From positions 1 to 46,849 of the forward strand of contig JAGGZE010000070.1 in the NCBI GenBank assembly GCA_021162205.1: DNA of 46,849 bases, written 5' to 3'. A program made the position numbers and the translations under genes. The DNA comes from a bacterium. GTDB taxonomy: Bacteria; UBP14; UBA6098; B30-G16. The notes below the pieces were generated by a model. That model was not told where the DNA came from. It saw only the letters and a list, made by a program, of their open reading frames with translations, and did no database searches. Shown in pieces: positions 11,973 through 41,206 of this stretch; position 1 is the first letter of the stretch, and the number at the start of each line of letters is the position of its first letter.

Positions 11973-12051
11973 TTTTCAGTCCTTAAAAATATCTAATAAG
12001 TTTCATCAAGGTTTTTGCTTAACCCTTTGTAATTCAAAGTATTATTAAATT

Positions 12052-12077
12052 CCCCACTTTTCCCCACTCATCCCCAC
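12052..12077 (-). promoter_or_regulatory. three direct GTGGGG repeats at 10-nt period (MraZ-box-like operator)
   Basis: The minus strand reads GTGGGGatgaGTGGGGaaaaGTGGGG. The repeats lie between the predicted -10 and the mraZ ATG. Confidence 0.7.
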
Positions 12078-12084
12078 AACAAAT

Positions 12085-12112
12085 ACTATATGAATGAGTT
12101 CGATTTTGTCAA
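12085..12112 (-). promoter_or_regulatory. sigma70-type promoter for the dcw operon (Pmra)
   Basis: Minus strand TTGACA (12112-12107), 16-nt spacer, TATAGT (12090-12085), about 110 nt upstream of mraZ. Confidence 0.6.
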
Positions 12113-12150
12113 GTGGAAAAATCAATTATTTAAAATTTTTTTAAGAGAAT

Positions 12151-13701
12151 TTAAATATTGAAAGGATACCAGAATATAAGATAAATTATCGAATAGGTTG
12201 TCGAAAACAATAATAGCAGTGTCTCTTTTGGATTAGATGATAAAATTATGTAGAAAAACATAACGATTGCAAATCCAATCGCAGCGAAAATCGGTATCGA
12301 TGAAATATGCCCTGCGATTATGGGAATTAAAATTATCGCTATAGCGGAAAATATTGAGCAAATAATTTTTCCATTATTATAGCCAAATATAGTTGGAATT
12401 GTAAATGTATTAGATTGTCTATCGCCATCGATATCTTTTAAATCTTTTGTGCAGAAACCGAGCATCACGCAAATAACCGCTGCCCATGCGATTCCTGCGG
12501 GAAATTTATCTATATTTCCCCTGATAAATGAATAACCCATCAGGATTCCCGAAAGTGTTGTCAAACCGAGAGTAAGCGTAGCGATTATCGGAATTCTTTT
12601 CAATCTCGCAGGTGTTGCGGAATAAATATATGCCAATGCGACGAACATAGTGGCGACCTTGAACACAGCACTTTTCTGTGAACCGAGAAAAATTAGGCCG
12701 ATTATCAATCCAACCCATGCAATAGAGGATGATTCATTTTTTTCGATAATATTTTGAACTATCGGTGTTCTATTTTGAGAAATCGAATCGCCATCATAGT
12801 CGTAGTAATAATTTATAAAAACTGCGAATATCCATAGAGCGACATAACCAATAATCATTGACAATAAGTCGATATAATTTATAACATACAATTTTTGAAT
12901 AGAACCACCGATTCCAATCCATACTCCGGCAATAATCATTCCGCCATAATGAATAAATCGAATCGGTCGAAATCCTTTTAGTAATGCATAAAATATATTT
13001 TTATTTAGTATATAAATCCATATAATCGTTAATATATAAATTATGATAACAAAACTCGACGATGCACTAATATGCCGTGTTCCCGAGAATAGTATAGGCG
13101 AAATATATCGAAGTATATTTGAGATGATTGAATTTATATATATTATCGATGCAGGTATAAATAATAGTATATTAAAAATATACGGCACCAATATAGCTTT
13201 CCATATAGTTTTGGTTCGTGTATATATATATATAAATAAAAGAAATGAAATAATATATAGTTCGATTCGTAGACCGGGTGAAAGGCCCCTGTGCATAGGA
13301 TAAAACGGAAGAGTCATATATAATGAAATCATTCCATTAAAAAATTGTTTAAAATTAGAAAAGTTAAGATAACCGAGTTGGAAACCCTCACCCAAAATTA
13401 AAATATCGAGAATCGGTGCAAGAAAAATCAAAATTATTCCGAATGCAGATATTTTATAGCTTTTTTCAGATGGAGGGACAAATAGTCCGAGTAAAATAGC
13501 ACAAATCAAAAATCCAATAAGATAAAACATTGGGAATTCAGAAAAATATAAATTTGCTCTAAATAATTTCCCATTACTTATAAAACTTTCGAGTCCATTG
13601 CGAATAAGTATCACGGCGATTATATATAATCCCAAAGACTTAAAATCCCCTGAACTCTCAATAGAATCTATAAATGTTTTTATTTTATCGCTAATTTTCA
13701 T
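12151..13701 (-). CDS. polytopic membrane protein: N-terminal unknown multi-TM domain fused to a UbiA-superfamily prenyltransferase domain
   Basis: 516 aa. The C-terminal half carries UbiA-type Asp-rich motifs 'NYYYDYDGDSISQNRTPI' (NxxxDxxxD...R.P) and 'KDLKDIDGDRQSNTFTIP'. The N-terminal ~250 aa is hydrophobic with no motif I recognise. Confidence 0.65.
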   Translation of the reverse strand: MKISDKIKTFIDSIESSGDFKSLGLYIIAVILIRNGLESFISNGKLFRANLYFSEFPMFYLIGFLICAILLGLFVPPSEKSYKISAFGIILIFLAPILDILILGEGFQLGYLNFSNFKQFFNGMISLYMTLPFYPMHRGLSPGLRIELYIISFLLFIYIYTRTKTIWKAILVPYIFNILLFIPASIIYINSIISNILRYISPILFSGTRHISASSSFVIIIYILTIIWIYILNKNIFYALLKGFRPIRFIHYGGMIIAGVWIGIGGSIQKLYVINYIDLLSMIIGYVALWIFAVFINYYYDYDGDSISQNRTPIVQNIIEKNESSSIAWVGLIIGLIFLGSQKSAVFKVATMFVALAYIYSATPARLKRIPIIATLTLGLTTLSGILMGYSFIRGNIDKFPAGIAWAAVICVMLGFCTKDLKDIDGDRQSNTFTIPTIFGYNNGKIICSIFSAIAIILIPIIAGHISSIPIFAAIGFAIVMFFYIILSSNPKETLLLLFSTTYSIIYLIFWYPFNI

Positions 13702-13891
13702 AATCGAATACTAATAATATTTTGAATTTATGCAATAATATAATAATAATTGACAATAAATATATAAGTATTGACTAATATAATAATAATAAGTTATAAT
13801 AATCGAAAAAGAAAATTCTTTTATTGCATTCCTCTAATTTTTTATATAATTTATAAAATATATCAAAATAATCTAAATTCGGGAGAAAATA

Positions 13892-14428
13892 ATGAATTAT
13901 CACGGAACGACTATAATCGGTATAGTAAGAGATGGCAAAGCCGTTATTGCAGGCGATGGACAGGTTACACTCGGCGAAATGGTTATAAAAGGTAATGCCA
14001 GAAAGGTTCGTTACCTTGCAGATGAAAGTGTCCTTGCAGGTTTTGCCGGTGCCGCCGCAGATGGTCTCGCATTGCTTTCAAGGTTCGAAAGTAAATTATC
14101 CGAACACAACGATTTAATTCGCTCGGCAGTCGAACTCGCTAAAGAATGGCGAACCGATAAAGCTCTGCGAAGACTCGAAGCCGAACTCGCCGTTCTCGAT
14201 AACGAAAAAGCATTATTGCTCACAGGTGCAGGCGATGTGTTAGAACCGGAAAATGGAATCGTTGCAATAGGCTCGGGTTCCGGATATGCTATTTCAGCAG
14301 CGAAAGCGTTTTTAATGCAGGATAATAAAATGCCGATTGAAAAAATAGCACGACAATCACTCGAAATAGCATCGCAAATCTGCATATATACTAATTCCAA
14401 TATCACACTATTGGAACTTAACGATTGA
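13892..14428 (+). CDS. hslV: HslV, ATP-dependent protease proteolytic subunit
   Basis: 178 aa, 'HGTTIIGIVRDGKAVIAGDGQVTLGEMVIKGNARKVR', matching the HslV/CodW N-terminal pattern. SD gggag upstream. Confidence 0.92.
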   Translation: MNYHGTTIIGIVRDGKAVIAGDGQVTLGEMVIKGNARKVRYLADESVLAGFAGAAADGLALLSRFESKLSEHNDLIRSAVELAKEWRTDKALRRLEAELAVLDNEKALLLTGAGDVLEPENGIVAIGSGSGYAISAAKAFLMQDNKMPIEKIARQSLEIASQICIYTNSNITLLELND

Positions 14429-14440
14429 TTACCTTATTGC

Positions 14441-14513
14441 GCGCCCGTAGCTCAACGGATAGAGCGTTGGCCCCCGGAGCCAAAGGTTGAGGGTTCGAAT
14501 CCCTCCGGGCGCA
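14441..14513 (+). tRNA. tRNA-Arg, anticodon CCG
   Basis: Manual cloverleaf: acceptor gcgcccg/cgggcgc, D arm gctc-aacggata-gagc, anticodon arm ttggc-CCCCGGA-gccaa, variable aggtt, T arm gaggg-ttcgaat-ccctc, discriminator A. No CCA is encoded. Confidence 0.88.
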
Positions 14514-14532
14514 CACCCCTTCGGGTGTTTTC
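14513..14532 (+). terminator. Rho-independent terminator after tRNA-Arg
   Basis: Stem acaccc/gggtgt with loop cttc, followed by tttcttc. Confidence 0.65.
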
Positions 14533-14579
14533 TTCGTGCAACTTTCCTTGTTCTCCGAACAATTCCCTGTTGCACCTGC
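14529..14579 (+). repeat. copy A of the conserved structured intergenic element (T-tract plus nested hairpin)
   Basis: tttcttc-gtgcaac-TTTCC-ttgttc-tcc-gaacaa-TTCCCT-gttgcac-ctgc. Same architecture as the copies at 43134-43187 and 44540-44592. Confidence 0.75.
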
Positions 14580-14663
14580 TTAATAAATAAATTTTAAAAT
14601 ACCGATAAAAGTTAGTTTTCCTATTTTTCTACTGAGAAAAAAGAAATTCTAATCAAAAAATGA

Positions 14664-14691
14664 TTGCTAAAAATTAAAATAAATTTATAAT
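14664..14691 (+). promoter_or_regulatory. candidate sigma70-type promoter for gcvH
   Basis: TTGCTA, 16-nt spacer, TATAAT, about 40 nt upstream of the gcvH ATG. The AT-rich context makes this weak. Confidence 0.35.
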
Positions 14692-14732
14692 TGTAAATTA
14701 TTTTAATAAACCAAATTTATTAGGAGGTTATA

Positions 14733-15110
14733 ATGGTTCTCGATGGTCTTTATTACACAAAGGAACACGAATGGGTTAAGGTCGAAGGCGACATAGCATC
14801 GGTTGGAATAACCGATTATGCACAAGGTGAACTTGGCGATGTCGTTTATGTGGAGCTTCCTTCTACCAATAAAAAAGTCTCGGTCGGTGATACATTCAGC
14901 ACAATCGAGGCTGTTAAAGCCGTTTCGGATGTCTATTCTCCCGTTTCCGGTGAAATTGTCGAAGTGCATCGGGAATTGGCAACAGTTCCAGACCTTATAA
15001 ACAAAGACCCATACGGTAGTGGATGGATGACAAAAATAAAAATCGCTAATCACGATGACATTAAAAATCTACTTTCTGCCGATGAATACAGGAAGCTTAT
15101 CGGGGAATAA
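14733..15110 (+). CDS. gcvH: glycine cleavage system H protein
   Basis: 125 aa, 'YTKEHEWVKVEGD..GITDYAQ', lipoyl-lysine context 'TIEAVKAVSDVYSP'. Strong SD taggagg. Confidence 0.95.
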   Translation: MVLDGLYYTKEHEWVKVEGDIASVGITDYAQGELGDVVYVELPSTNKKVSVGDTFSTIEAVKAVSDVYSPVSGEIVEVHRELATVPDLINKDPYGSGWMTKIKIANHDDIKNLLSADEYRKLIGE

Positions 15111-15235
15111 TTTTTCGCACAGGATATTTTATCGAAACATTTTTATCATTTGCATCGTCTAATTTATATAGTGCGATTGCAATTTGTTTCTGATAATCGA
15201 AATTTTTATAATGAAATACAATTTGGAGGCACAAA

Positions 15236-16597
15236 ATGGCTGATTTCCCATATCTCCCTCAAACAGATGAAAATCGTCGAGATATGCTAAAAAGAATAGG
15301 TGTCGATTCAATCGATGAACTTATCGATGATGCAATTCCAAAGGAAATACAATTCGATGCAAAATTACCACTTCCCGATGGTTTATCCGATATCGAAATC
15401 GAAAGAATAATTGCATCTCTCGCCGATAAGAATCGTGCTGCGAAAATGAAAAATTTCATTGGCGGTGGAGCTTACGAAATGTATGTTCCGGCAACTGTGG
15501 ATGAAATCGCTGGACGCCCTGAATTTTATACTGCATATACTCCATATCAACCCGAGGTCAGTCAGGGAACACTTACCGCTGTTTTTGAATTCCAGTCGAT
15601 GATGGCAACTTTGACAGGTATGAAAGTAGCTAATGCCTCGATGTATGACGGTGCATCGGCAACCGCGGAAGCCGCTATTCTTGCACTGCATTCCACGAAA
15701 CGCAAAAGAGTGATTTATTCACAAGGACTTAATCCACTTTATCTCGAGGTTCTGCGAACATACATTCACAGTTTCGATGTGGAACTTGTTCCTGTGCCAT
15801 CGAGCAGCGGAACTACCGATGTATCGGCACTCGAAAAACTTGTCGATGAAAACACCGCTTGTGTTATCGTTCAAAATCCCAACTTCTTCGGTATAGTCGA
15901 AGATGGTAAGCAATTTGCGGATATAATTCATTCGGTGGGTGCTATTTATATCGTTGCGATACCAGACCCGATGAGTCTCGGGATTATTGCACCACCCGGT
16001 GATTACGATGCCGATGTCGCTGTCGGTGAGGCTCAACAGTTCGGGAATTACATCTCTTATGGTGGACCATATATCGGTTTTATGACTGCAAAAAAGGAAT
16101 TGATTCGCTCTATGCCCGGCAGAATTATCGGAATGACCAAAGATGTCGATGGCAAACGCGGTTTCGTTATGGTATTCCAGACGAGGGAACAGCATATCCG
16201 TCGAGCGAGAGCGACATCGAATATTTGCACGAATCAGCAATTGTGTGCACTCAGAGCGACTGTATATCTCGCACTACTCGGTGCAAAAGGATTTTCTACT
16301 CTATCTAAACTTTTATTCGACCGAGCTCATTATTTGGCGGAAAAATTGACTGAAATTTCAGGTATATCTTTATTGTTCGATGCGCCATTTTTCAGAGAAT
16401 TTGCGATTAAAATTCCGGGCAAGGCATCCGATGTTGTAGAAACTTTCGCTCGAAAAAATATACTTCCTGGAATTAATGTGGGGAAATTTTATTCGGCAAT
16501 GGAGGATGTGCTTTTGATTTCATCCTCAGATTTATATGCTAAGGACGACATCGACGAACTTGTCGAATCGATGAAAAAATATTGGAATGAAATTTAA
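15236..16597 (+). CDS. gcvPA: glycine dehydrogenase (decarboxylating) subunit 1
   Basis: 453 aa with the 'YTPYQPEVSQGTL' signature. SD ggagg upstream. Confidence 0.95.
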   Translation: MADFPYLPQTDENRRDMLKRIGVDSIDELIDDAIPKEIQFDAKLPLPDGLSDIEIERIIASLADKNRAAKMKNFIGGGAYEMYVPATVDEIAGRPEFYTAYTPYQPEVSQGTLTAVFEFQSMMATLTGMKVANASMYDGASATAEAAILALHSTKRKRVIYSQGLNPLYLEVLRTYIHSFDVELVPVPSSSGTTDVSALEKLVDENTACVIVQNPNFFGIVEDGKQFADIIHSVGAIYIVAIPDPMSLGIIAPPGDYDADVAVGEAQQFGNYISYGGPYIGFMTAKKELIRSMPGRIIGMTKDVDGKRGFVMVFQTREQHIRRARATSNICTNQQLCALRATVYLALLGAKGFSTLSKLLFDRAHYLAEKLTEISGISLLFDAPFFREFAIKIPGKASDVVETFARKNILPGINVGKFYSAMEDVLLISSSDLYAKDDIDELVESMKKYWNEI

Positions 16598-16614
16598 CAA
16601 ATGAAGGGGGATAA

Positions 16615-18600
16615 ATGAGAAAGATAATTTTAACTATAACAGCGCTTATTGCAGTGGTATTGTTCGTTAGCTGTGCGCCGAAAGGGAGTCAGCATTTCGG
16701 ATTTGCTCATCCTGAATTTAATAAAGTGCCTCCAGAAATTATGGCAAAAATTGTCGATGCGGGAGATGCTTTCACCTATCCCGATGCTAATGCTATCGTT
16801 ATCGAAAATGTGGACAGTAGTATATTTGAAGAGAATGGAGCCGTAACTCAATACTCATATTCACTCGAGAAACCACTAACTCCACAGGGTTTGAAAGATG
16901 AAAGCGTTACTAATTTGTCTTATGATAGTCAAATGATGACAATCGATATATTTTATGCTGGAGTTATTCATCCCGATTCGACAATCGAATTTGTTCCCGA
17001 TAGCGAAATCATCGACCAAGTGGCATCCGAGGGTGCGATGGATATTTATTGGACAAATTTGCGCAAGAAGACAATCCATTTCCCCAAACTTTATCCCGGT
17101 GATGCAGTGGTTCTTGCGTATAAATATACGATACTGAAACCATATTTTGATGGTGTCATTTCAGGTTCTGCTGGTTTTCAATCGACCGAACCGATTCACA
17201 GCAATCGTTCTGTGAACCTTATTCCTAAATCGAGAATCGGCGAAGTTCATTATAAAATTATGAATGACAATAAGGATTTGGTTAAATTTAAGGAATATGA
17301 CTGGAAAGATTATCATGCACTTGTTTGGGAAGCTGACAGCACACGAGCGTTCGTGCCTGAATTCGGTATGCCATCTGCAAGTAGATATGTCCCGTTGGTA
17401 TTGTTCTCAAATGTAACCTGGAAAGAACTTTCTCGTAAAGCCTGGGATATAACCGAACCGCCTATGAAAATAACCGACTCCGAAATTCCCAAAATGGTGA
17501 AATCGCTTGTGGAAACTTGCAAAAGCGAAATGGATTCGATTAAAGCTATTGCTATTTGGGCTTCGCAGGATGTAAGATATGTTGGGCTTTCACTCGGTGA
17601 TAAGGAAGGAATTACTCCTCACGATGTCAATGAAACATTTGCAGCTCGAAGTGGTGTATGTAAGGATAAAGCGGCGCTCGCTGTTGCTATGTTCCGTGAA
17701 GCTGGATTCGATGCCTACAATGTTCTAACAAATCCGATGGGATATATCATTTACGATGTAGCTGTCAATCAATTCAATCATCAGATAACGATGGTTCGCA
17801 CAAGAAATGGCAAGGAGCATTTTTTCGATACAACTGTCGACCTTGCGGATACACTTCCAGGATATTATAGCAGAAAAGGTTATCTTGTTCTTTCAAAAGA
17901 AGGTGAGGACCTTAAATATTTCCCGCTTATAGGACCTGAAATAAATAATGGAAATATTATCGCCGATTCAAAAATCGACGATGCTGGAAATCTTACAAGC
18001 ACTGTGGTTATCACGGGCAGTGGAATTTACGATATGGTCATTCGTCAAATTCAGCAGGTGCTGGAAAAAGAAGATAGGGAAAGATTTTTCCGCAGGATGA
18101 TAAATCAAATCGACCCGAGTGCAAAATTAGTGGATTTAAAATTTGAACCCGATTCTCCTACCGACCTTTTTAAACCCGCAAAAATAACTCTTAAATACGA
18201 AATACCTGATTTTGCAATCGATGCGGGAGATTATCTACTGTTATCTGCACCGTGCGCTCAGCATATTTTCGATATATTAAGCAGTTCACTTTCAGAATAT
18301 ACTAAACTCGATGATAGGAAATATCCGTTGGAAATTCAATTCACGATAGGTTCGGATATAACCGAAACGATACAACTTCCAGCAGACTATAAACCCAAAA
18401 GTATTCCCAATAATGTGAATATAAACAATAAATATTTTAAATATTCGATGGATTATGGTATTCGAGGGAAAACGGTAACCTATAAATCATCGTTAAAACT
18501 TCCCGATATCGATGTTCCGCTGAAAGATTATACTGAGTTCAGGAAGTCTTACACAAATTATAAAAATTCTGAAAAGGGAATGTTATTTTTAAATCGCTAA
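16615..18600 (+). CDS. lipoprotein with DUF3857-like N-terminus, transglutaminase-like Cys-protease core and DUF3858-like C-terminus
   Basis: 661 aa with lipobox 'LFVSC'. Core motifs are 'SGVCKDKAALAVAMFREAGFDA' (Cys), 'FNHQITMV' (His) and 'FFDTT' (Asp). SD aggggg. Confidence 0.75.
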   Translation: MRKIILTITALIAVVLFVSCAPKGSQHFGFAHPEFNKVPPEIMAKIVDAGDAFTYPDANAIVIENVDSSIFEENGAVTQYSYSLEKPLTPQGLKDESVTNLSYDSQMMTIDIFYAGVIHPDSTIEFVPDSEIIDQVASEGAMDIYWTNLRKKTIHFPKLYPGDAVVLAYKYTILKPYFDGVISGSAGFQSTEPIHSNRSVNLIPKSRIGEVHYKIMNDNKDLVKFKEYDWKDYHALVWEADSTRAFVPEFGMPSASRYVPLVLFSNVTWKELSRKAWDITEPPMKITDSEIPKMVKSLVETCKSEMDSIKAIAIWASQDVRYVGLSLGDKEGITPHDVNETFAARSGVCKDKAALAVAMFREAGFDAYNVLTNPMGYIIYDVAVNQFNHQITMVRTRNGKEHFFDTTVDLADTLPGYYSRKGYLVLSKEGEDLKYFPLIGPEINNGNIIADSKIDDAGNLTSTVVITGSGIYDMVIRQIQQVLEKEDRERFFRRMINQIDPSAKLVDLKFEPDSPTDLFKPAKITLKYEIPDFAIDAGDYLLLSAPCAQHIFDILSSSLSEYTKLDDRKYPLEIQFTIGSDITETIQLPADYKPKSIPNNVNINNKYFKYSMDYGIRGKTVTYKSSLKLPDIDVPLKDYTEFRKSYTNYKNSEKGMLFLNR

Positions 18601-18637
18601 TTTTATAACTATAATCGATTGAAATTAAGGGGGAAAT

Positions 18638-20527
18638 ATGAGAAAGATTATTTTATTGACAATCGCTTTGAGTTCATTGATTTTTGCATTCGATTTCTCG
18701 GCAGATACCGTTGTTTCGCAAAATTTGAAAAAAACGATTAATTCTGTTCCACCGCACGAGGATTTTCCTAATGCATCATACTATATAATCTGCGACAGTT
18801 CGATAACGAAACTCACACAGTCCGGTTCTGAAACCGAGAGATATTTTCTCGCTAAAGCATACACATATCGTGGGAAGAAAAAATTATCGAATTTCAAAAT
18901 AATTTTCAATGCAGATTATGATGCGGTGGAACTGATTCGTGCGAGAACGATAAATGCCGATGGCGTTTCTACTGTGGATTCTACCGAGGTCAATGAAGTT
19001 ATTGCACCGGGATATTCCGCAGCTACTATTTATACCAAAATGATGCAGATGGTGATTTCCATTCCGGCATTTGCTGAAAGCTCGGTTATCGAGATTCACT
19101 ACAAAACCAAAACCAGCAAGGATGCGCCGATACCATTCGGGGGGATGAATGTTCTTGTCGGTGAAGAACCTGCTAAAAAAGTTTTTTTCGCGCTATCGGG
19201 CAAAAAGATAAACTATAAATCTATTTCCGGCGCTCCAAAACCAAAAATTGCAGGCAACACAGCAAGCTGGACAATTAAGGATTATAAGGGTGCTCAATTT
19301 GAATCTAATATGTTGCCGCTTCGAGAAATTATGCCGACTGTTCTATATAGTGCTTCTCGGAATTGGGTCGATGAATTGGAATCTATCACAGGGATGTTCT
19401 TACCTCATACTGTCGGTGACGACGATATAACTGCATTGGCGGAATCGCTTTCTACGGGGAAATCCAAACGAGATGCACTCGAAAGCATTTTATATTACAT
19501 TCAGGAGAAATTCAATAGGATACATATAAGTCCCAATCGTGTCGGCTATCGTCCAAACGATGCCGGTATCGTTCTTAAAAATGGCTATGGCGACAGCAGA
19601 GACCTTTCGGTTTTGCTTATCTCTATGCTGCAAGCGATTAAAATACAGGCAAAACCTGCTCTCGTTGCATCGGGTGGTGCAAAAATCCAGGATTTTCCTT
19701 CGGTTCATCAATTTTCGAGAATGGTCGTTATGGTTGAACTCGATGGTAAAATTTTATATCTCGACCCGATACAGGAATATGCATCCGCTGGGTTTCTTGG
19801 AAGTGCTAATGGTGAAAAGTCGTTGATAATATCACCGGGTGAAACTAAATTAAATGAAATTCCTGCTATTCGCCCCGACGATAATATGGCGATTAATACT
19901 TACGATTTGAGTCTCGATGCCTCGGGAAATATTGCTGGCGAAATCACTACTACTGTAATCGGTGATGCTGCGGGTTCGATTCGTTCTATGTTCCGTCATG
20001 CTAAAAAGAGCAAGAAAAAACAGAAATTTCAGAAAGCTGCATCTAATGTTGCAGATGGTGCAAAAATCGAAGGTGAACCTAAAATGGATGGTATCGAAAC
20101 CAATTCGGGCAAAGCGACTATCGAATTTTCATTTACTGCTAATAATTTCCTCATCACTCAAGACCCGATGGCTATATTATGGTTACCCAATTCAGCATTC
20201 GGTTTGTTTTCACTGCCAGATATTTCTGAGGAAAAAAGAACATTCCCGATATATTTAGAGATACCGATAAAAATCGTAAAAGACATTACTATAAAAATAC
20301 CCGATGAATATAGTATTGTATATGTTCCACCTGTTACGCATATCGAGGATGAAGTTGGAACAATCGATATAACATCACAGCACGGGAATAATTCGATGCA
20401 GATTAGTATTTCACTATCATTGAAAGAAAAGCGTATTTCGACAGATGAATATGAAAAATTGCGAAATCTTGTTAGAACGATTTTTGCTAAAAAATTCAAA
20501 ATAATATTGCTGGAGAAGCAAATATAA
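18638..20527 (+). CDS. secreted paralogue of the preceding transglutaminase-like protein with Cys-to-Ser replacement at the predicted nucleophile
   Basis: 629 aa with a signal peptide. 'NGYGDSRDLSVLLISMLQAIKIQA' aligns to 'SGVCKDKAALAVAMFREAGFDA' of the neighbour. 'VHQFSRMV' and 'YLDP' keep the His/Asp positions. Confidence 0.7.
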   Translation: MRKIILLTIALSSLIFAFDFSADTVVSQNLKKTINSVPPHEDFPNASYYIICDSSITKLTQSGSETERYFLAKAYTYRGKKKLSNFKIIFNADYDAVELIRARTINADGVSTVDSTEVNEVIAPGYSAATIYTKMMQMVISIPAFAESSVIEIHYKTKTSKDAPIPFGGMNVLVGEEPAKKVFFALSGKKINYKSISGAPKPKIAGNTASWTIKDYKGAQFESNMLPLREIMPTVLYSASRNWVDELESITGMFLPHTVGDDDITALAESLSTGKSKRDALESILYYIQEKFNRIHISPNRVGYRPNDAGIVLKNGYGDSRDLSVLLISMLQAIKIQAKPALVASGGAKIQDFPSVHQFSRMVVMVELDGKILYLDPIQEYASAGFLGSANGEKSLIISPGETKLNEIPAIRPDDNMAINTYDLSLDASGNIAGEITTTVIGDAAGSIRSMFRHAKKSKKKQKFQKAASNVADGAKIEGEPKMDGIETNSGKATIEFSFTANNFLITQDPMAILWLPNSAFGLFSLPDISEEKRTFPIYLEIPIKIVKDITIKIPDEYSIVYVPPVTHIEDEVGTIDITSQHGNNSMQISISLSLKEKRISTDEYEKLRNLVRTIFAKKFKIILLEKQI

Positions 20528-20563
20528 TATAAATATGTTTATCGATAGTAGGGAGATAAATAA

Positions 20564-20995
20564 ATGAAGGGTATCGCAGGTTGTCTTATAATTATAGCAT
20601 TCGTTACATTTGCATTTGGATGGTTCACCGCTTTTCCTTATAATGGTATAAGGTTCAGTGTAGCGCCGCTATCCGATGGCAATTTCGTATGTGTCGGCAT
20701 AGATGAGGATATATATTTTCAGGGGAATATTGTCGATACAGATGGTGCGTCGATAACTGAATTCTCAGGTGAACATACATATAGCGAACTTCCATATATG
20801 AGTGTTTCCGCTTGCTCTACCGATGGATTTATATATTCATATTTACAACTCGATTCCGATGAATATATAATAGAGAAACGGTCGAATTCTGGGACTATTA
20901 TATGGTCGCCGTATAAAATTTCATCGGGAATATATACAGGCATAATATCGACAAAATATATAAATGAATCTTTTAATATACTATATATGAAATGA
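20564..20995 (+). CDS. small membrane-anchored or secreted protein of unknown function
   Basis: 143 aa with an N-terminal hydrophobic segment (CLIIIAFVTFAFGWF). SD gggag. Packed 36 nt and 13 nt from its neighbours. Confidence 0.55.
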   Translation: MKGIAGCLIIIAFVTFAFGWFTAFPYNGIRFSVAPLSDGNFVCVGIDEDIYFQGNIVDTDGASITEFSGEHTYSELPYMSVSACSTDGFIYSYLQLDSDEYIIEKRSNSGTIIWSPYKISSGIYTGIISTKYINESFNILYMK

Positions 20996-21008
20996 ACAGG
21001 AGGTTTTA

Positions 21009-22739
21009 ATGAATAGACGAATACTATATGCAGGGATAATACTATTCTTAATTGCAATTACAGTGGTTATTTTTGCTTCGGCTAAAACTAATATATATAA
21101 ACAAATTAAAATGGCGGACCAGGTCATTACTACTATATATACAGACTATGTGGACCCGATAGATTATAGAAAACTTATCAAAGGTGCAATAGATGGAATG
21201 ACATCGACACTCGACCCACACACTGTATTTTTTACACCGAAACAGTATAATGATTTAAAAATCGATACACGCGGGAAATTTGGCGGTCTTGGAATTCAAA
21301 TAGGATTGCGTGATAAATGGTTAACTGTTATCTCGCCAATAGAAGGCACACCCGCTTATCGTTCTGGTATTCAAGCTGGAGATAAAATAATTAAAATCGA
21401 AGGAGAATCCACAAAAGGAATAACAACAGAAGAAGCTGTTTCTAAACTTCGTGGAGACCCTGGCACTAAAGTAACAATCACAATTTCCCGTGAAGGCGAG
21501 CCGAAATCGTTCGATGTAATAATCGTAAGAGATATTATCGAGATAAAACCGATTCCATACTATGGACTTGTAGATGATGATATAGGTTATGTTCGACTTA
21601 CACAATTTTCAGCAGAGTCTGGCGATGAAATAAAAAATGCACTGATAGACCTCACACAACAGGGTGCTAAGGGTATTATTCTCGATTTACGAAGTAACCC
21701 GGGCGGTTTATTATCGCAAGCTGTTTCGGTTGCGAGTCAATTCTTAGGCAAGGATGCTTTGGTAGTATATACTAAAGGACGCACCGAATATCAGTCGAGA
21801 GAGTATTATACCGAAAACGAGGGAGAATATTCTACGGGTTCATTGATAGTCCTTGTCGATGGTGGAAGTGCATCGGCATCGGAAATTGTAACAGGTGCTA
21901 TTCAAGACCACGATAGAGGTGTGGTTCTCGGTATGTCGAGTTTTGGCAAAGGACTCGTTCAATCTGTTCGACCTATGTCCGATGGCACAGCACTTAAAAT
22001 CACGACAGCAAAATATTACATTCCAAGTGGTAGATGTATCCAGAAAGAAAACTATCTTAAGGGAAGAAATAGCTCGATTATATCCGATACACTGAATTAT
22101 AATCCCGATGAACAGGATCCATGGGATTTTAAATTGGAACCCGCAGATACAGATACTACAGAAGAAAAACCGCTTTATTACACTAAAGGTGGCAGAAAAG
22201 TTTATGGTGGTGGTGGAATTCAACCCGATATAAAATTTAAACCGCGGAAACTCAATAAACTCGAATTCGATATTTTCCGAAAGGGATTATTTTTCGGATT
22301 TGCTGTCCATTATGTTGCCACGCACAAAGGACAGTTGAAATCCCCAGATTTCGAGGTTACAGATAAAATGGTAAAGGAATTCAAAAATTTCATTAAGGAA
22401 AAGGATTTTGAATACAAATCACGCGAGGAGTTGATTCTCGATGAACTCGATTCTATCGCAGTGGAAGATTCTATTTCCGATACCACTATGAAAATGATAG
22501 ACAATCTTAGAAGCAGACTTATTGTCGAGGAAGAACTCGATTTTCAACGTAGTTTAAAATTTGTCAAAAGAGAAATCAAGCGGCAGCTCATTCAGGCGAT
22601 TTGGGGAGAAAAAGAACGATACCGTTTCGATTTGAAAAATGATAAAACTGTTCAGCGAGCAATAGAAGTTCTTCGAGACCATACCGAATACGAAAGTTAT
22701 TTGACCACAAGAAATATTCCAGCTGTCGAAAATAAATAA
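21009..22739 (+). CDS. S41 family C-terminal processing peptidase (Ctp/Prc-like) with PDZ domain
   Basis: 576 aa with an N-terminal anchor and a PDZ-like segment 'GGLGIQIG...GDKIIKIEG'. Catalytic contexts are 'DLRSNPGGLL', 'GGSASASEIV' (Ser) and 'SFGKGLVQ' (Lys). Confidence 0.9.
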   Translation: MNRRILYAGIILFLIAITVVIFASAKTNIYKQIKMADQVITTIYTDYVDPIDYRKLIKGAIDGMTSTLDPHTVFFTPKQYNDLKIDTRGKFGGLGIQIGLRDKWLTVISPIEGTPAYRSGIQAGDKIIKIEGESTKGITTEEAVSKLRGDPGTKVTITISREGEPKSFDVIIVRDIIEIKPIPYYGLVDDDIGYVRLTQFSAESGDEIKNALIDLTQQGAKGIILDLRSNPGGLLSQAVSVASQFLGKDALVVYTKGRTEYQSREYYTENEGEYSTGSLIVLVDGGSASASEIVTGAIQDHDRGVVLGMSSFGKGLVQSVRPMSDGTALKITTAKYYIPSGRCIQKENYLKGRNSSIISDTLNYNPDEQDPWDFKLEPADTDTTEEKPLYYTKGGRKVYGGGGIQPDIKFKPRKLNKLEFDIFRKGLFFGFAVHYVATHKGQLKSPDFEVTDKMVKEFKNFIKEKDFEYKSREELILDELDSIAVEDSISDTTMKMIDNLRSRLIVEEELDFQRSLKFVKREIKRQLIQAIWGEKERYRFDLKNDKTVQRAIEVLRDHTEYESYLTTRNIPAVENK

Positions 22740-22777
22740 TCTATCGAATGTTTAAAATATAATAGGAGGTTTTCAAA

Positions 22778-24229
22778 ATGTCCGAACTTCTATGGGAAAT
22801 CGAGAAAGAGGGGAGAATAGGTGTTAAATTACCGAAATCCGATGTCCCTAAATACGAATCGAAAAAACTATTACCCGATAATATGGTGCGAAAATCCGAG
22901 GCGAAATTTCCGCAATTAGCTGAACAGCAAGTCGTTAGGCATTTTGTCGAACTCTCTGCCAAAAATTATCATCTCGATAAAAGTATCTATCCGCTCGGTT
23001 CCTGCACGATGAAATATAATCCCAAAATAAATGAGCGTCTCGCTAACCTCGCTGGATTCACTAAAATTCATCCGCTTACTCCGGATGAATATGTGCAGGG
23101 AGCACTCGAAATTATGAGCGAACTCGGCAATGGCTTTTGCAAAATCGGTGGAATGGATGCGATAACACTTCAACCTGCCGCAGGCGCTCATGGCGAAATC
23201 ACAGGTCTTATGATAATGCGAAGATATCACGAGGCACAGGGCAATCCACGCAAAAATGTCGTAATCCCCGATTCATCGCATGGGACAAATCCTGCATCCA
23301 TCGTGCTAAGTGGATGGCAACCTATCGAAATAAAATCGGGTCCCGATGGCAAAATCGATTTGAAAACACTCGAAAAGTATCTCGATAAAGACCTTGCAGC
23401 ATTGATGGTTACGAACCCGAACACTCTCGGGATATTCGAAAGCGATATCGAAAAGGTCGCAGATATGCTTCACTCTGTCGGCGCACAACTTTATATGGAT
23501 GGTGCGAATATGAATGCGCTGCTCGGTATCGCTCGACCGGGCGATTTCGGTGTCGATGCACTTCACTATAATCTTCACAAAACATTTTCGACACCTCACG
23601 GCGGAGGCGGTCCAGGTTCGGGTCCTGTGGCTGTGAAAAATCATCTCGAACCATTTATTCCAAAGCCGAAAATTGTATTCGCAAATGGTAAATATTCACT
23701 CGATTGGGATATTCAGCAGTCGCTCGGTAAAGTTCAGGCATTTTGGGGAGCATTCGCAGTTATAGTTAAAGCTTATGCTTATATACTATCACTCGGCGCC
23801 GATGGTATCAGAAAAACATCCGAGGATGCGGTGTTGAACTCGAATTATCTGCGAGCGATTCTCGAAAAGTATTACGACCTGCCTTATAAATCGACATCGA
23901 TGCACGAGTTTGTTCTATCCGGTGAATTTTTGAAAAAATATGGTGTGAAAACTCTCGATATTGCCAAAAGATTGCTCGACCTCGGTTTTCACGCACCGAC
24001 AATCTATTTTCCATTGATTGTTCACGAGGCATTGATGATAGAACCGACCGAAACCGAGCCATTGGAAACACTCGATGCATTCGCCGATGCAATGATTCGA
24101 ATTCGCAAGGAAGCCGAGGAAAATCCCGATATTTTAAAATCCGCGCCGCACGATACAGCGGTCCGTCGGCTCGACGATGTCGCTGCAAACAGAAACCCGA
24201 TACTTACATGGTGGGATGTAAAATCGTAA
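22778..24229 (+). CDS. gcvPB: glycine dehydrogenase (decarboxylating) subunit 2
   Basis: 483 aa with PLP-lysine context 'NLHKTFSTPHGGGGPG'. SD aggagg. Confidence 0.95.
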   Translation: MSELLWEIEKEGRIGVKLPKSDVPKYESKKLLPDNMVRKSEAKFPQLAEQQVVRHFVELSAKNYHLDKSIYPLGSCTMKYNPKINERLANLAGFTKIHPLTPDEYVQGALEIMSELGNGFCKIGGMDAITLQPAAGAHGEITGLMIMRRYHEAQGNPRKNVVIPDSSHGTNPASIVLSGWQPIEIKSGPDGKIDLKTLEKYLDKDLAALMVTNPNTLGIFESDIEKVADMLHSVGAQLYMDGANMNALLGIARPGDFGVDALHYNLHKTFSTPHGGGGPGSGPVAVKNHLEPFIPKPKIVFANGKYSLDWDIQQSLGKVQAFWGAFAVIVKAYAYILSLGADGIRKTSEDAVLNSNYLRAILEKYYDLPYKSTSMHEFVLSGEFLKKYGVKTLDIAKRLLDLGFHAPTIYFPLIVHEALMIEPTETEPLETLDAFADAMIRIRKEAEENPDILKSAPHDTAVRRLDDVAANRNPILTWWDVKS

Positions 24230-24341
24230 GTCGGAATTTTTAGAAAATACAAGTTGTTGAATTGTCCTTTCACGACTCTACCGCGTGTGGGTGTATGTGG
24301 CAATTACTCATTTTGCATTGCTTCCAGCCATGGTGGGGTTT

Positions 24342-24372
24342 CATTTCCGTCGGGGCGAAATCGTAACTCGCA
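24342..24372. repeat. 31-nt direct repeat, copy 1
   Basis: catttccgtcGgggcgaaatcgtaactcgca. Identical to 24491-24521 except at position 11. Confidence 0.9.
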
Positions 24373-24490
24373 CCGGGTCGCCGATAATTAAATCCAAATG
24401 TCAAAGCTCAAATGTCAAAATCCCTTCACTATCACCCATTTAGTCATTTGGATTTTGAGCTTCATTTGTCATTTGGTTTTTGGATTTTGG

Positions 24491-24521
24491 CATTTCCGTC
24501 AGGGCGAAATCGTAACTCGCA
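24491..24521. repeat. 31-nt direct repeat, copy 2
   Basis: catttccgtcAgggcgaaatcgtaactcgca, 149 nt downstream of copy 1. Confidence 0.9.
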
Positions 24522-24617
24522 TTACCTTGCCCAGCGGACCGAGCCGCAACTTCTTGTCACGGTATTCAAGCGTAATTGGCACCGCAGTCACGATTAGATG
24601 CACAATAACGCCAGCTA

Positions 24618-24842
24618 TCAGGATAGATTCTTAAATTCTTCAAGTGTTAATCCGCTTTCCCTGATAATCTTTCGCAATGTTCCCTTTGCAATTTCCCTAT
24701 GGTCGGGAACAGTCAGGCGGCGATAGGGCGGGTCGATATTCCTCAAGATAATATGACTGCCGGTTTGGTGGTCTATGAAATACCCAAATTTCTCCAAGAT
24801 TTTGCATAGTTCGCGCCCCGATAGCACTGGCAGCTTGCTCAT
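24618..24842 (-). CDS. hicA: HicA-family mRNA interferase toxin
   Basis: 74 aa, 'LSGRELCKILEKFGYFIDHQTGSHIILRN...TVPDHREIAKGTLRKIIRESGL' (YcfA/HicA pattern). Overlaps the hicB stop by 4 nt (ATGA). Confidence 0.85.
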   Translation of the reverse strand: MSKLPVLSGRELCKILEKFGYFIDHQTGSHIILRNIDPPYRRLTVPDHREIAKGTLRKIIRESGLTLEEFKNLS

Positions 24843-25051
24843 GCCATTACCTCGACTAATTCCTCGGTGATAGGTGCGGGAATAGCTTCTCCATGCTTTT
24901 TCAGGCTTTCAAGATAACCTTTTATTGCATCGGAAATATTCTCGATGGCTTCACCACGGGTTTTTCCCTGAGAAATGCAGCCGGGCAGCGTCGGGCATTC
25001 CGCAATAAAGACACCATCCTCATCTTGTTCGATTAAAATTCTGTAGTGCAT
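24839..25051 (-). CDS. hicB: HicB-family (UPF0150) antitoxin
   Basis: 'MHYRILIEQDEDGVFIAECPTLPGCISQGKTRGEAIENISDAIKGYLESL'. The ATG at 25051 has SD aaggag 7 nt upstream. The track's longer start (25075) is rejected. Confidence 0.85.
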   Translation of the reverse strand: MHYRILIEQDEDGVFIAECPTLPGCISQGKTRGEAIENISDAIKGYLESLKKHGEAIPAPITEELVEVMA

Positions 25052-25073
25052 TATATCACTCCTTTTCAAGAGC

Positions 25074-25101
25074 AATATAATCGAGGTGAATTGATTGTCA
25101 A
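25074..25101 (-). promoter_or_regulatory. sigma70-type promoter for hicBA
   Basis: Minus strand TTGACA (25101-25096), 16-nt spacer, TATATT (25079-25074), about 20 nt upstream of the hicB SD. Confidence 0.55.
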
Positions 25102-25211
25102 GTTATATGATAGGCTTATTTATGGTGAGTTTATGCGGCATCGAGTTCGTCCTGCGGCAGACCGATTATCCATAATCACGGATGCCATATTATCTTCCTT
25201 GTGTTTGAACG

Positions 25212-25230
25212 AGGGGTTGCAACCCCTTTT
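25212..25230 (+). terminator. GC-rich palindrome plus T-run (terminator-like on the + strand)
   Basis: aggggttgcaacccct followed by ttt. No annotated + strand gene lies upstream. Confidence 0.35.
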
Positions 25231-25739
25231 CGACTAATCTTCGATGAAATAATCTCTCTGCAACCTTCTATCCGAGAGGTCGTCGCGTTAATCAGAGTCT
25301 CGGAAGCCATTGTCGACTGCGTCGAAAGCTCCGCTGACCCCGTCAATGCCCTATTTACGCCATTTCCCGTCATTTCAGGTATAAAAGCCGTATTTCTGAC
25401 CCCCTACTTCATTAGTATTGCTCGCTTAGTTATTGTCCTATCTCCAATTGTTGCTTTTATCAAATAGAGCCCCGATGGGATTGATTTGTCGGGTTGCCAG
25501 ATGAATGCGCGGGATATAGGGGCGACTCTTGTGGTCGCCCTTTCCACATGGGAAATCGTTTCATCACGGGCAGGCCCCTACGAAATTAGGTATCGAAGAT
25601 GTTTTATTGTGCAGGTGATTCATTATTTATTCTCATGCTCGAAAAGATAATTGGAGTTTATGAAAAGTCGAGAGCATCATCGAGAAAGTGAATGTCTTTT
25701 CCATAATCTCGTTTAGATAAACTTAAATCGCTGTTCGAT

Positions 25740-28478: not shown

Positions 28479-28484
28479 AATCGG

Positions 28485-29306
28485 TTATTTTTTCTTTTTC
28501 GATGCTACTTTAGTGGTATCGTCGGCAGGCGGATTGAAATCGTAAAGTCCCCAAACTATATCGAAATTCGCTCGAGTCGAATCCATCTCGATTACATAGG
28601 AAACAGGAGCGATTGCATATTTAAGCTCCTTAATTTTTCGAGCGAATGCCATAAATTGTTGGTAAGAACCTTTTGCTGTCAATCTATATCTAAATTTATT
28701 GCCTCCCTTAACTTTTTCGTTTGCCGAGACCACCAGTCGATTTATATCGGTCAATCCGTGCATTTCCGCAAGTGAATCGATAAAATTCATAACGGTTGTG
28801 AGCAAAAATTTCTTAATAGGTTGCGGTTGGAATTGAGTGTTCACTCTCGCCATTCTACCCTTAAATACGACATTAAATTTACCATCGATGGTCGAAGTGT
28901 CTATAATAGTAATGATTTTTCCAAGCTTATCGACTTTTAAAATAAGACTATCGGGATGCATCGAAGATTTAATTTTGAAAACGCAAATAAAATTATCTGC
29001 ACCATCCGAAACAACCTTCTGAGGATTTAATGGTAGAATTGCATTTATAAATTTATCCCATTCGATAAGATTTCGGGCAATTTGCCCAGATAAAGTTATC
29101 GGTTTGGTTTTGGGTTTAGTAGGAATTTCCGTTATAGCGTTGGCTCGTTCAGTGCTTGAAAAGTAAAAGAATAAAGCGATTCCACCAGCTATAATAAGCA
29201 GGACGATGAGAAGAGAAGTGTAAATTTTTCTCATACTTGTGGCTCGCATTTGAGCAGGTGGTTTCTCGAGAGAATGATAAAGTCCTATGTCGATAATCTT
29301 TGCCAT
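28485..29306 (-). CDS. bitopic PilN/PilO-like pilus alignment protein
   Basis: 273 aa with one TM (LLIVLLIIAGGIALFFYF). The C-terminal 'RYRLTAKGSYQQFMAFARKIKELKYAIAPVSYVIE' resembles the PilO ferredoxin-like core. Lies 2 nt after the pilM-like gene. Confidence 0.55.
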   Translation of the reverse strand: MAKIIDIGLYHSLEKPPAQMRATSMRKIYTSLLIVLLIIAGGIALFFYFSSTERANAITEIPTKPKTKPITLSGQIARNLIEWDKFINAILPLNPQKVVSDGADNFICVFKIKSSMHPDSLILKVDKLGKIITIIDTSTIDGKFNVVFKGRMARVNTQFQPQPIKKFLLTTVMNFIDSLAEMHGLTDINRLVVSANEKVKGGNKFRYRLTAKGSYQQFMAFARKIKELKYAIAPVSYVIEMDSTRANFDIVWGLYDFNPPADDTTKVASKKKK

Positions 29307-29308
29307 AA

Positions 29309-30235: not shown

Positions 30236-30248
30236 AATTTCGGCTCGA

Positions 30249-30731
30249 TTATTTAATGCTCCATGTCGAAGTTCCCATAATTATTTGACCGTGTCCATTA
30301 GGACAGCTTATCGAAAAGAAAAACGAATCTCGCGCCATAATGATATATTCTTGTCCATCGAGTGGACAATACGATTTGAAATCACCGAGTTTATCCTGTG
30401 GCACCATTTTCTTCAATTCCTCGAAATTCTTGGTAAAAACGCGTGGGAACGATGCTTTTTCTTCGGTTGCTTTCTTTTCTTTTTCGACCTTTGTGGTATC
30501 GGTGACATCGGTAGAATCCATCGATTTCTCTTCAGGTTTTATTTGTCCACCCGCTGTTTCAAAATATTTCAACTCGGCATCGGAAATTAAAAGCATTCGT
30601 TGACGGCATAAATTGCGGATTTTCAAACTTTCCTCGGTTCGCAAATATGGTAAAATCAATGTGGCAATCACACCGATAGCTAAAATTAAAATTATAACAT
30701 CCAATAACATTAAGCCTTTTCTTGTGCGCAT
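30249..30731 (-). CDS. prepilin-like protein (class III signal peptide)
   Basis: 160 aa, 'MRTRKG/LMLLDVIILILAIGVIATLILPYL'. C-terminal Cys pair 'YCPLDGQEY...ISCPNGHG'. SD aagggg. Confidence 0.65.
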   Translation of the reverse strand: MRTRKGLMLLDVIILILAIGVIATLILPYLRTEESLKIRNLCRQRMLLISDAELKYFETAGGQIKPEEKSMDSTDVTDTTKVEKEKKATEEKASFPRVFTKNFEELKKMVPQDKLGDFKSYCPLDGQEYIIMARDSFFFSISCPNGHGQIIMGTSTWSIK

Positions 30732-30823
30732 TTTTTTGCCCCTTTCAATTTTTTATTCTTTTAGATATTATCGATTATTATGAAAATAAATTAAAATAAA
30801 AAAAATTCCATAAAAAAACTAAA

Positions 30824-31258: not shown

Positions 31259-31302
31259 TATCGATAAAAATAATATATATACAAAATTTTGCAAAAGGAA
31301 TT

Positions 31303-32238: not shown

Positions 32239-32307
32239 TTCATTCTCCAATTAACTCGAATAATTTTAGATAAATTGTTCGTCCAATTTTATGTAATTAT
32301 GAGTGAA

Positions 32308-33471: not shown

Positions 33472-33491
33472 TTATAATTCCTTGTTAATAT

Positions 33492-36571: not shown

Positions 36572-36611
36572 AGTCGCCTCCTATATCTTCAAAAATATTT
36601 ATTGTAATGAG

Positions 36612-41175: not shown

Positions 41176-41206
41176 TGGGCGAACGGCATTCGCCCCTATA
41201 TAATTG

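Follow-up and report, generated by a model that had tools for sequence, protein, structure and literature searches.

A dispersed two-hairpin repeat with covarying stems and invariant loop strands at gene ends in one bacterial species and its sister

Short, imperfect extragenic palindromes occur in many copies in enterobacteria and pseudomonads, where they are known as repetitive extragenic palindromic (REP) sequences and bacterial interspersed mosaic elements (BIMEs). They lie mostly at the 3' ends of genes, singly or in tandem, form mosaics with other short motifs, are species-specific, and mark hot spots of rearrangement and of assembly breakage. BIMEs can attenuate transcription. REPs near stop codons affect the upstream mRNA (PMC12306157). 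Another kind of folded extragenic sequence, the integron attC site, is defined by an R box of the form RYYYAAC/GTTRRRY, a nonconserved spacer of 5-6 nt in each arm, extrahelical bases on one arm near the L box, a length of 57-141 bp, arrays of co-oriented cassettes and a nearby intI gene, with the AAC/GTT triplet as the only letters conserved in all attC sites (PMC5027507). Here we describe a two-hairpin unit of about 70 bases from an uncultivated sediment bacterium that shares the REP and BIME traits of structure, placement and distribution and part of the attC geometry. Three copies (A, C and B, in map order) lie on the + strand of contig JAGGZE010000070.1 from assembly GCA_021162205.1; the whole 46,849-nucleotide stretch analysed is called the window. 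A PorP/SprF-type protein encoded in the window and a Por secretion tail in a relative together point to a bacterium of the Fibrobacteres-Chlorobi-Bacteroidetes (FCB) type.

Anatomy, covariation and placement of the element

From 5' to 3', each copy consists of a short G+C-rich hairpin (hairpin 1, H1), the tract G-TTTTCTT-Y, a perfect 7-bp outer stem, the strand (T/G)TTCC, an inner hairpin, the strand TTCCCT, the closing arm of the outer stem and C(Y/G)GC (coordinates in Table 1). Hairpin 2, which begins with the outer stem, measures 40-47 nt in total and comprises the 7-bp stem, an all-pyrimidine internal loop of 5 and 6 nt on its two sides, a stem of 6-9 bp and a terminal loop of 3-4 nt. It is followed by a loosely conserved tail, CCTG-TTAAT-AAATAAC-TTTTCAAC, and the covariance-model match of copy A covers 14510-14603. 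RNA folding of copy A returned exactly the two-hairpin fold (-22 kcal/mol, z = -6.5 for the whole element), and its hairpin 2 folded as DNA gave z = -5.4. The fold was clear for copy B and weaker for copy C, in which H1 and the inner stem are both degenerate; a strain copy (L127; L numbers denote contigs other than the window) has C-G where H1 of copy C has a C.A mismatch. Folded as DNA, hairpin 2 is equally good on either strand. The positions of the three copies and their two-hairpin architecture had been put forward in a first-pass annotation of the window, and both were confirmed by sequence and folding. Three matches to the 5' half-pattern GTTTTCTTYGN6KTTCCT were found in the window, as compared to 0.23 in shuffles even when two mismatches were permitted, and a covariance model run on the window found only A, B and C, the next match having E > 1. 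A fourth TTCC...TTCCCT match, at 24657, falls within the hicA gene and was rejected as chance.

Both stems vary among copies by compensatory substitution. With a structure derived from the same sequences as were tested, two pairs of rows that are orthologues and all rows drawn from one or two species, a MAFFT-only alignment of nine canonical copies had 90.2% of its cells paired, as compared to 66.7% in shuffles (0 of 500 reached the observed value) and 30-41% with slid partners. Double-sided change was seen in 16 of the 20 pairs of this alignment, and its outer stem was 100% paired, with six of seven pairs changed on both sides. The model-fitted alignment, to which the same limits apply, has 14 rows including degenerate copies and gave 92.2% paired cells, against 66.4% in shuffles and 31-44% with slid partners, with double-sided change in 16 of 18 pairs. 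The unpaired segments GTTTTCTTYG, TTCC(T) and (A)TTCCCT do not vary among the nine canonical copies, and their decay is limited to visibly decayed copies (L128-2, L129-1 and a second hairpin family described below). The first-pass annotation had spoken of invariant pyrimidine bulges, which is correct as to invariance in the canonical copies, but the two strands are not bulges; they are the two sides of one internal loop. Its further statement that only unpaired segments are conserved holds in the main, both stems covarying, but some paired positions are fixed too, namely the G-C pair with which the outer stem begins, the T...A that closes the inner stem and, in H1, the CA...TG base. It had also treated a selected fold and a copied repeat as alternatives. 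The covarying stems bear out the former, but the family is at the same time a dispersed and tandem repeat with mosaic modules. The element is thereby confirmed as a real structured repeat family.

Two aspects that the earlier description had missed are the terminator-like nature of H1 and the exact placement of the element at stop codons and tRNA ends. H1 followed by GTTTTCTTY matches the consensus of intrinsic terminators. A scan for G+C-rich stems of at least 5 bp that enclose 3-8 nt of loop and are followed by 8 nt with 5 T or more returned copies A and B, whose stems are the strongest (most G-C pairs) among the terminator-like sites of that scan in window positions 12000-46849. The remaining matches in this range lie almost all within coding sequence and occur at shuffle frequency. 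Copy C was missed by the scan because its stem has four pairs plus a mismatch. The GTTTTCTTYG tract is confined to elements and is always followed by hairpin 2, which starts exactly at the end of the T tract.

The element is co-oriented with the upstream gene at all six loci where that gene is known (two tRNAs and four open reading frames, ORFs), and in five of the six (A, B, L129, L130 and L131) it starts 0-1 nt past the gene end. The upstream genes are tRNA-Arg at A, the gene of an M28 family peptidase, at its stop codon, at B, tRNA-Leu on L129 and ORFs, at their stops, on L130 and L131; the sixth locus is an array of the second hairpin family on L131, which starts about 110 nt past its convergent ORF. 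The first base of copy A comes directly after the discriminator base of tRNA-Arg(CCG). Copy B starts inside the M28 stop codon TAA (44520-44522), whose two A's belong to the H1 stem and are paired to the T's with which the T tract opens. Orthologues of the M28 peptidase without the element end at the same residue, indicating that the element abuts the native stop and has not truncated the gene.

Further copies, mosaicism and distribution

A strict pattern (GTTTTCTTYG-N6-KTTCCT-N12-18-ATTCCCT or a close variant) was scanned against three collections. In JGI metagenome contigs it gave eight matches, of which six are real loci and two are chance (L124, L126). All six loci come from a single metagenome, Ga0164318 (IMG 3300013103), whose study site we take to be Guaymas Basin hydrothermal sediment. 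This metagenome is one of two in the Helarchaeota study (PMC6478937). Two of the six loci belong to a strain that shares 98-99% identity with the window and are orthologous to copies A and C. Among the others, L128 carries two tandem copies, L129 has a tRNA-Leu(GAG) with two copies directly behind it and then the beginning of a third, and on L130 and L131 the element starts at the stop codon of a co-oriented ORF. The tandem copies on L129 differ in sequence and are irregularly spaced (about 56 and 98 nt), unlike the identical repeats of a clustered regularly interspaced short palindromic repeat (CRISPR) array, which recur at an even period between unique spacers. In total, about 13 copies at at least nine loci were found, with tandems and with mosaics involving a second hairpin family. 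The covariance-model check proposed with the first-pass annotation thus returned further copies, and these carry compensatory changes.

Parts of the element recur in different combinations. The inner hairpin TTGTCGAT-aga-ATCGACAA is shared by different outer stems (GCATTGC and GCGTTGC) behind different H1 sequences (CACCC and CAGGTG), and the commonest outer stem, GTGCAAC/GTTGCAC, present at six loci, carries four different inner hairpins. The classes of H1 (CACCC/GGGTG, CAGGC/GCCTG, GAGCC/GGCTC and CGGGC/GCCCG) are related by double flips. At L131:2479-2691 (+), three head-to-tail units of 60 nt from the second hairpin family, a sister of the canonical one, face the canonical copy across a convergent gene pair. 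Each consists of H1 (GAGCC/GGCTC or CAGGC/GCCTG), CTTTTAATG, GCGAC, TTTTCTT, an interior, ATTCATT and GTCGCC, and the interior, TCGCTTCGCTCA, is also present in window copy C and after the tRNA-Arg of the sister species. A second stereotyped terminator-like module, GAGCC-nnnn-GGCTC-TTTTTAATGG, lies in the opposite orientation just after canonical copies. Decay is visible in copy C, L128-2, L129-1 and the sister-species copy after tRNA-Arg. Contigs L002 and L128 begin within or next to a copy, L125 and L129 stop at one, and L132 does so on both sides, which makes at least six contig ends at copies, as is expected of a multi-copy repeat in short-read assemblies. A 25-nt divergence of the strain contig L125 right after copy A was not counted, as it may be an assembly-graph artefact at the repeat; nor was a run of N inside copy A in the European Nucleotide Archive (ENA) scaffold, which spans the whole AT-rich spacer to gcvH and is weak on its own as a repeat-induced break.

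The sister species, represented by contig L132, has an M28 peptidase with 83% amino acid and 81% nucleotide identity to that of the window. Copy C is kept there with the same outer stem. Its loops are changed, and the 5' loop harbours a 23-nt palindrome that is also the inner hairpin of L128-2. Copy B is kept at the M28 stop with TTTTCTTT identical, while its H1 shows a compensatory change from CGGGC/GCCCG to CAGGC/GCCTG; the 5' arm of its outer stem differs at three of seven positions, and L132 ends before the 3' arm. A route to the missing 3' half through a TetR homologue (L149-L151, L154) led to unrelated genomic contexts and was abandoned. A relative with 84% identity in HslV, which is probably the same sister species, has tRNA-Arg followed by a degenerate, hairpin-2-like remnant only, and the synteny of the window with this relative stops exactly at the element after tRNA-Arg. 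Strains of the relative differ by a clustered 4-nt replacement in the 3' arm of the remnant and by an indel of about 330 nt beside it.

The strict pattern found no locus in GTDB representative genomes (one per species) other than one chance match in a Bdellovibrio coding region, and there was no counterpart of the element in PLSDB plasmids or INPHARED phages. Viral contigs served as a noise control: the loose pattern TTTTCTT-N9-TTCC-N13-19-TTCCCT gave more than 120 matches, none with at least 6 of 7 outer-stem pairs, and a tighter pattern gave four, all stemless. The element is absent from the orthologous M28 loci at 52-61% protein identity (L133-L137) and from the orthologous HslV locus at 75% identity (L147), and the additional 10 kb of ENA scaffold L138 past the window start hold no copy. 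With Rfam 15, tRNA alone passes the gathering threshold in the window, and permissive scans around A, B and C gave sub-threshold chance matches (YrlA, 21 bits as compared to 69; Bp1_162, 24 bits as compared to 50), in agreement with the earlier statement that the element belongs to no named Rfam family. The known range of the element is one species and its sister species. Contigs of the former with 98-100% identity are present in IMG 3300013103 and in ENA ERZ23499370 and ERZ27227322, and SRR14000033 contains the latter.

Candidate roles and comparison with known systems

The observed anatomy, covariation, placement, copy number, mosaicism and narrow distribution of the family are the ground on which a role can be proposed. 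We favour, tentatively and at somewhat less than even confidence, a reading of the element as the unit of a lineage-specific, REP/BIME-like dispersed 3'-end cassette, in which an intrinsic terminator is joined to a structure-selected hairpin that shows two pyrimidine strands on read-through RNA. H1, with 5-7 G+C-rich pairs and an NTTC-type loop, followed by GUUUUCUUY, would terminate the gene or tRNA that ends 0-1 nt upstream. Because hairpin 2 begins at the end of the U tract, it would be produced only on read-through, by those polymerases that pass the terminator. Its stems and loop sizes would be kept by selection on shape and its UUUCC and UUCCCU strands by selection on sequence, and such joint selection makes a docking or processing site on read-through RNA the most likely function of hairpin 2. 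One candidate role is a cut by an endoribonuclease that would leave a protected 3' hairpin, and another is that a termination factor loads on the YC-rich strands which the hairpin exposes; in both cases the transcription unit that follows would be insulated. Duplication and inter-copy recombination would spread and reshuffle the copies. Both candidate roles have precedents. The RNase III sites of the early and late mRNAs of phage T7 lie between transcription units and have two stems around a sequence-conserved internal loop, and their cleavage leaves a protective 3' hairpin. At lambda tR1, the C/U-rich single strands of rutA and rutB are held apart by the boxB hairpin and jointly form a Rho loading site. 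These are functional analogies alone, with no sequence similarity claimed, and the loops described here are all-pyrimidine on both sides.

The cassette reading is supported by the terminator-like make-up of H1, by the orientation shared with the upstream gene at six of six loci, five of which start at the gene's end, by the restriction of the T tract to units with hairpin 2, by the covarying stems, by the multiple, tandem and mosaic copies, and by the retention of the T tract and loops across an orthologous pair of copies whose stems have diverged. Several points weigh against it. Termination at H1, transcription of hairpin 2 and the existence of a binding partner are steps that we infer, and no candidate binding protein was identified. 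RNA and single-stranded DNA are not separated as the selected molecule, since both strands fold equally well, and G.U as opposed to A.C mismatches are too few to tell the functional strand. Template switching within palindromes could keep stems perfect without selection. The family is sampled by a small number of copies, about 13 from two closely related species, and the covariation counts are not fully independent because some copies are orthologous. Finally, copy C lies between divergent genes, a VTT-domain gene on the - strand and the M28 gene on the + strand, and so has no co-oriented upstream gene to terminate.

Among described systems, intrinsic terminators, including stereotyped, repeat-borne ones such as paired DNA uptake sequences in Neisseria, resemble H1 in its G+C-rich stem of 5-7 bp, its loop of 3-5 nt and its TTTTCTT tract, as well as in its co-oriented position directly downstream of genes, and the GAGCC-nnnn-GGCTC-TTTTTAATGG module is a second stereotyped, terminator-like sequence in the same genome. 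Ordinary terminators, however, have no second covarying hairpin with invariant loop strands and do not form a repeat family with shared flanks. REPs differ in having a conserved stem sequence and a GTAG/CGTC tag, whereas here neither hairpin is tagged, the stems are the variable part and the unpaired strands are invariant. Here, moreover, a terminator hairpin with a T tract is integral to the unit and its orientation is tied to the upstream gene. A miniature inverted-repeat transposable element has terminal inverted repeats and a target-site duplication; in copies A, B and C neither the unit nor hairpin 2 is bordered by direct repeats, the sole internal candidate being the TTCC...TTCC pair around the inner palindrome. 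Invariant loops with covarying stems, a built-in terminator and base-exact placement at gene ends are unusual traits among species-specific structured intergenic repeats. Repeats of the REP and BIME kind are usually recognised by a conserved stem sequence, and this family is the reverse. Were it to act as RNA, it would be a portable cassette combining a terminator with a handler of read-through transcripts, and a natural setting in which fail-safe termination or 3'-end processing could be studied cleanly in an FCB-type lineage of which little is known; were it to act as DNA, it would be a second shape-defined recombination site after attC. In either case it breaks short-read assemblies of the host organism and offers a compact signature for tracking the lineage in metagenomes.

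The main rival is an action as DNA, which is possible but doubtful. In this account, hairpin 2 would be a structure-specific single-stranded DNA site for a recombinase or an HUH transposase, analogous to attC or to the REP/RAYT system, in which REPs flank the gene of a cognate Y1 HUH transposase (RAYT), with the terminator either carried along or favoured as a target. Recognition by the protein would rest on the two-stem shape, the invariant loop strands would provide the recognition or strand-exchange sequence, and the activity would spread and reshuffle the family. When held against the published criteria (PMC5027507), the geometry is attC-like in favouring structure over sequence, in its 7-bp outer box, its spacers of 5 and 6 nt, its inner box and a terminal loop of down to 3 nt, and in a purine skew of the bottom strand in the unpaired parts. 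The outer stem GTGCAAC/GTTGCAC is one base from RYYYAAC/GTTRRRY and correctly oriented relative to the upstream ORF, the site lies at or beside the stop of the preceding ORF, and the M28 gene is bracketed by two co-oriented sites, C and B. Rearrangement speaks in the same direction: the neighbourhood of the M28 gene differs from that of its 52-61% orthologues, which adjoin panC; sister-species synteny breaks exactly at the element after tRNA-Arg; a 4-nt replacement is clustered in a stem arm between strains, with the indel of about 330 nt beside it; the 23-nt palindrome in the loop of sister-species copy C is the inner hairpin of another copy; and modules are freely recombined. Yet only the GTGCAAC/GTTGCAC class has a correctly placed AAC/GTT, although all copies have a 7-bp box, and the triplet is absent from GCATTGC, GCGTTGC, GCACAAG and GGCGAC. 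The spacers match in length, but their sequences, TTTCC and TTCCCT, are invariant here and variable in attC. Extrahelical bases are lacking, with inner stems fully paired in A, L128-1, L129-2, L130 and L131 and just sporadic mismatches or bulges in B, L129-1 and L128-2, and hairpin 2 is shorter than the 57 bp minimum of attC. Unlike cassettes, the copies have a terminator hairpin ahead of each, follow two tRNA genes and stand in ORF-less tandems. The window proteins that were scanned, like the precomputed annotations, show no IntI or other integrase and no Y1_Tnp, RAYT or transposase domain, and there is neither a GTAG tag nor a target-site duplication. Exact placement at native stops and fixed orientation are, in turn, what a terminator predicts. 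Since several defining features fail, the element is not an attC site, and, as the first-pass annotation had held, it is a canonical example of neither attC nor REP; it could still work like an attC site. A long shot in this direction is that hairpin 2 is the site of an undescribed, shape-specific single-stranded DNA recombination system outside integrons in an FCB-type bacterium, in which the variable 7-bp boxes would be read by shape and the invariant spacer would supply homology for strand exchange. If true, this would account for the reassortment of modules and for the relocation of element-bracketed genes such as M28.

It is improbable, to our mind, that the family is a selfish or neutral palindromic repeat without cellular function, its stems kept perfect by intrastrand template switching or gene conversion and its loops conserved merely because the copies are young or because they serve as micro-homology for conversion. 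The restriction to one species and its sister, with none in the 52-61% relatives or, by the strict pattern, in GTDB representatives, would fit such a repeat, as would the mosaic, tandem and decayed copies, and the inner palindrome is flanked by TTCC...TTCC, which could have arisen by duplication. It would not lead one to expect an orientation and start point fixed relative to upstream genes in six of six cases, a T tract that is invariant in an orthologous pair with diverged stems, or asymmetric loops that are all-pyrimidine on one strand, which palindrome correction leaves unexplained. Very unlikely, in our estimate, is a site on duplex DNA for a protein just past the termination point (a roadblock, gyrase or a nucleoid protein), for which TTCC motifs about two helical turns apart would be half-sites. 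BIMEs bind gyrase and integration host factor, TTCC(T)/TTCCC(T) direct repeats do lie 20-22 bp apart in all canonical copies, and hairpin 2 sits at the downstream duplex of a polymerase paused at the T tract; a duplex site, however, has no need of complementarity between flanks or across its spacer, yet both stems are kept by double substitutions. Least credible of all is a trans-acting small RNA whose UUUCC and UUCCCU loops pair with purine-rich ribosome-binding sites, an idea that goes back to the first-pass annotation. The loops are single-stranded in the predicted fold and complementary to AGGAA and AGGGAA, but genes of the window use Shine-Dalgarno sequences of the AGGAGG/GGAGG type, with AGGAA, GGAAA or AGGGA upstream of only 1-3 of 38 starts, which speaks against the loops as seeds. 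Hairpin 2 also lies behind a terminator, so that it would be transcribed only on read-through, and has no terminator of its own; the copies share no promoter (a search of the tail and 3' arm for Bacteroidetes-type or sigma-70 promoters gave no consistent match across copies); and the element starts at stop codons and tRNA ends, unlike independent small RNA genes. A CsrA-sponge reading of the reverse strand (AGGGAA/GGAAA) was discarded, since it is the upstream genes with which the orientation agrees and the GGA motifs lie outside hairpin loops.

Feature coordinates and other observations in the window and neighbouring contigs

Table 1. Coordinates of the element copies, adjoining genes and the second terminator-like module (window positions unless a contig is given)
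Feature	Position	Strand	Sequence or remark
tRNA-Arg(CCG)	14441-14514	+	ARAGORN; Rfam tRNA 70.1 bits
Copy A, H1	14513-14528	+	ACACCC-cttc-GGGTGT; predicted fold; intrinsic-terminator-like; first-listed terminator-like site in 12000-30000
Copy A, T tract	14527-14535	+	GTTTTCTTC
Copy A, hairpin 2 outer stem	14536-14542 / 14569-14575	+	GTGCAAC/GTTGCAC
Copy A, internal loop	14543-14547 / 14563-14568	+	TTTCC / TTCCCT
Copy A, inner hairpin	14548-14562	+	TTGTTC-tcc-GAACAA
Copy A, tail	14576-14603	+	CCTGCTTAATAAATAAATTTTAAAATAC; loosely conserved between copies
Copy C, H1	43120-43133	+	CAGGC-attc-ACCTG; weak, C.A mismatch
Copy C, T tract	43133-43141	+	GTTTTCTTT
Copy C, hairpin 2 outer stem	43142-43148 / 43176-43182	+	GCGTTGC/GCAACGC
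Copy C, internal loop	43149-43153 / 43169-43175	+	GTTCC / TTCCCTT
Copy C, inner hairpin	43154-43168	+	interior TCTCGCTTCGCTCGA, (TCGCT)x2-type; poor hairpin
M28 family peptidase gene	43311-44522	+	Pfam PF04389, E = 2e-36; copy C upstream, copy B at stop codon
Copy B, H1	44521-44539	+	AACGGGC-gctca-GCCCGTT; listed among the best terminator-like sites in 30000-46849
Copy B, T tract	44537-44545	+	
Copy B, hairpin 2 outer stem	44546-44552 / 44581-44587	+	GCACAAG/CTTGTGC
Copy B, internal loop	44553-44557 / 44575-44580	+	TTTCC / TTCCCT
Copy B, inner hairpin	44558-44574	+	TTCAGAC-aaa-GTCGGAA; one A.G mismatch
GAGCC-nnnn-GGCTC module sites	L125:1-25, L128:1610-1653, L130:1175-1200, L131:2480-2500		L130 site serves convergent gene

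The leader or promoter region that follows copy C and precedes the M28 start codon (window 43183-43310; L132:90-213 in the sister species) looks about 90% identical by eye between the two species, as compared to 81% over the whole aligned locus, which is mostly gene. Repeated TTTTGCAT/TTGCA motifs and a TAATTTTG box suggest that this leader is probably regulatory. The spacer between copy A and gcvH (14604-14732) has a G+C content of about 20%, is N throughout in the ENA scaffold, and contains a good match to a sigma-70-type promoter, TTGCTA-16-TATAAT, at 14664-14691. Assemblies also break at L138:11090-11292, past window position 1. Four independent ones stop less than about 100 nt behind murG, as does the window, and a run of N stands at this place in the ENA scaffold. 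The covariance model finds no copy of the element there, so something else breaks the assemblies at this point.

Further along the window, the non-coding gap after the gene for gcvP subunit 2 (24342-24521) holds two 31-nt direct repeats, CATTTCCGTC[G/A]GGGCGAAATCGTAACTCGCA, which are 97% identical, lie 149 nt apart and bracket inverted repeats of the AAATGTCAAA type. It is followed on the - strand, at 24618-25075, by a putative toxin-antitoxin pair of hicA-like and hicB-like genes (74 and 78 amino acids), judged from their translated sequences, and then by about 650 nt without a convincing ORF (25076-25739). A 1158-amino-acid fused N6-methylase/Eco57I/MmeI-like protein, encoded at 36915-40391 (-), is apparently a restriction-modification enzyme of the single-polypeptide type IIG/IIL. 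The release factor 2 gene at 41207-42300 (-) is split over two reading frames, and CTTTGAC, the classic site of +1 frameshifting, is at 42233-42227.

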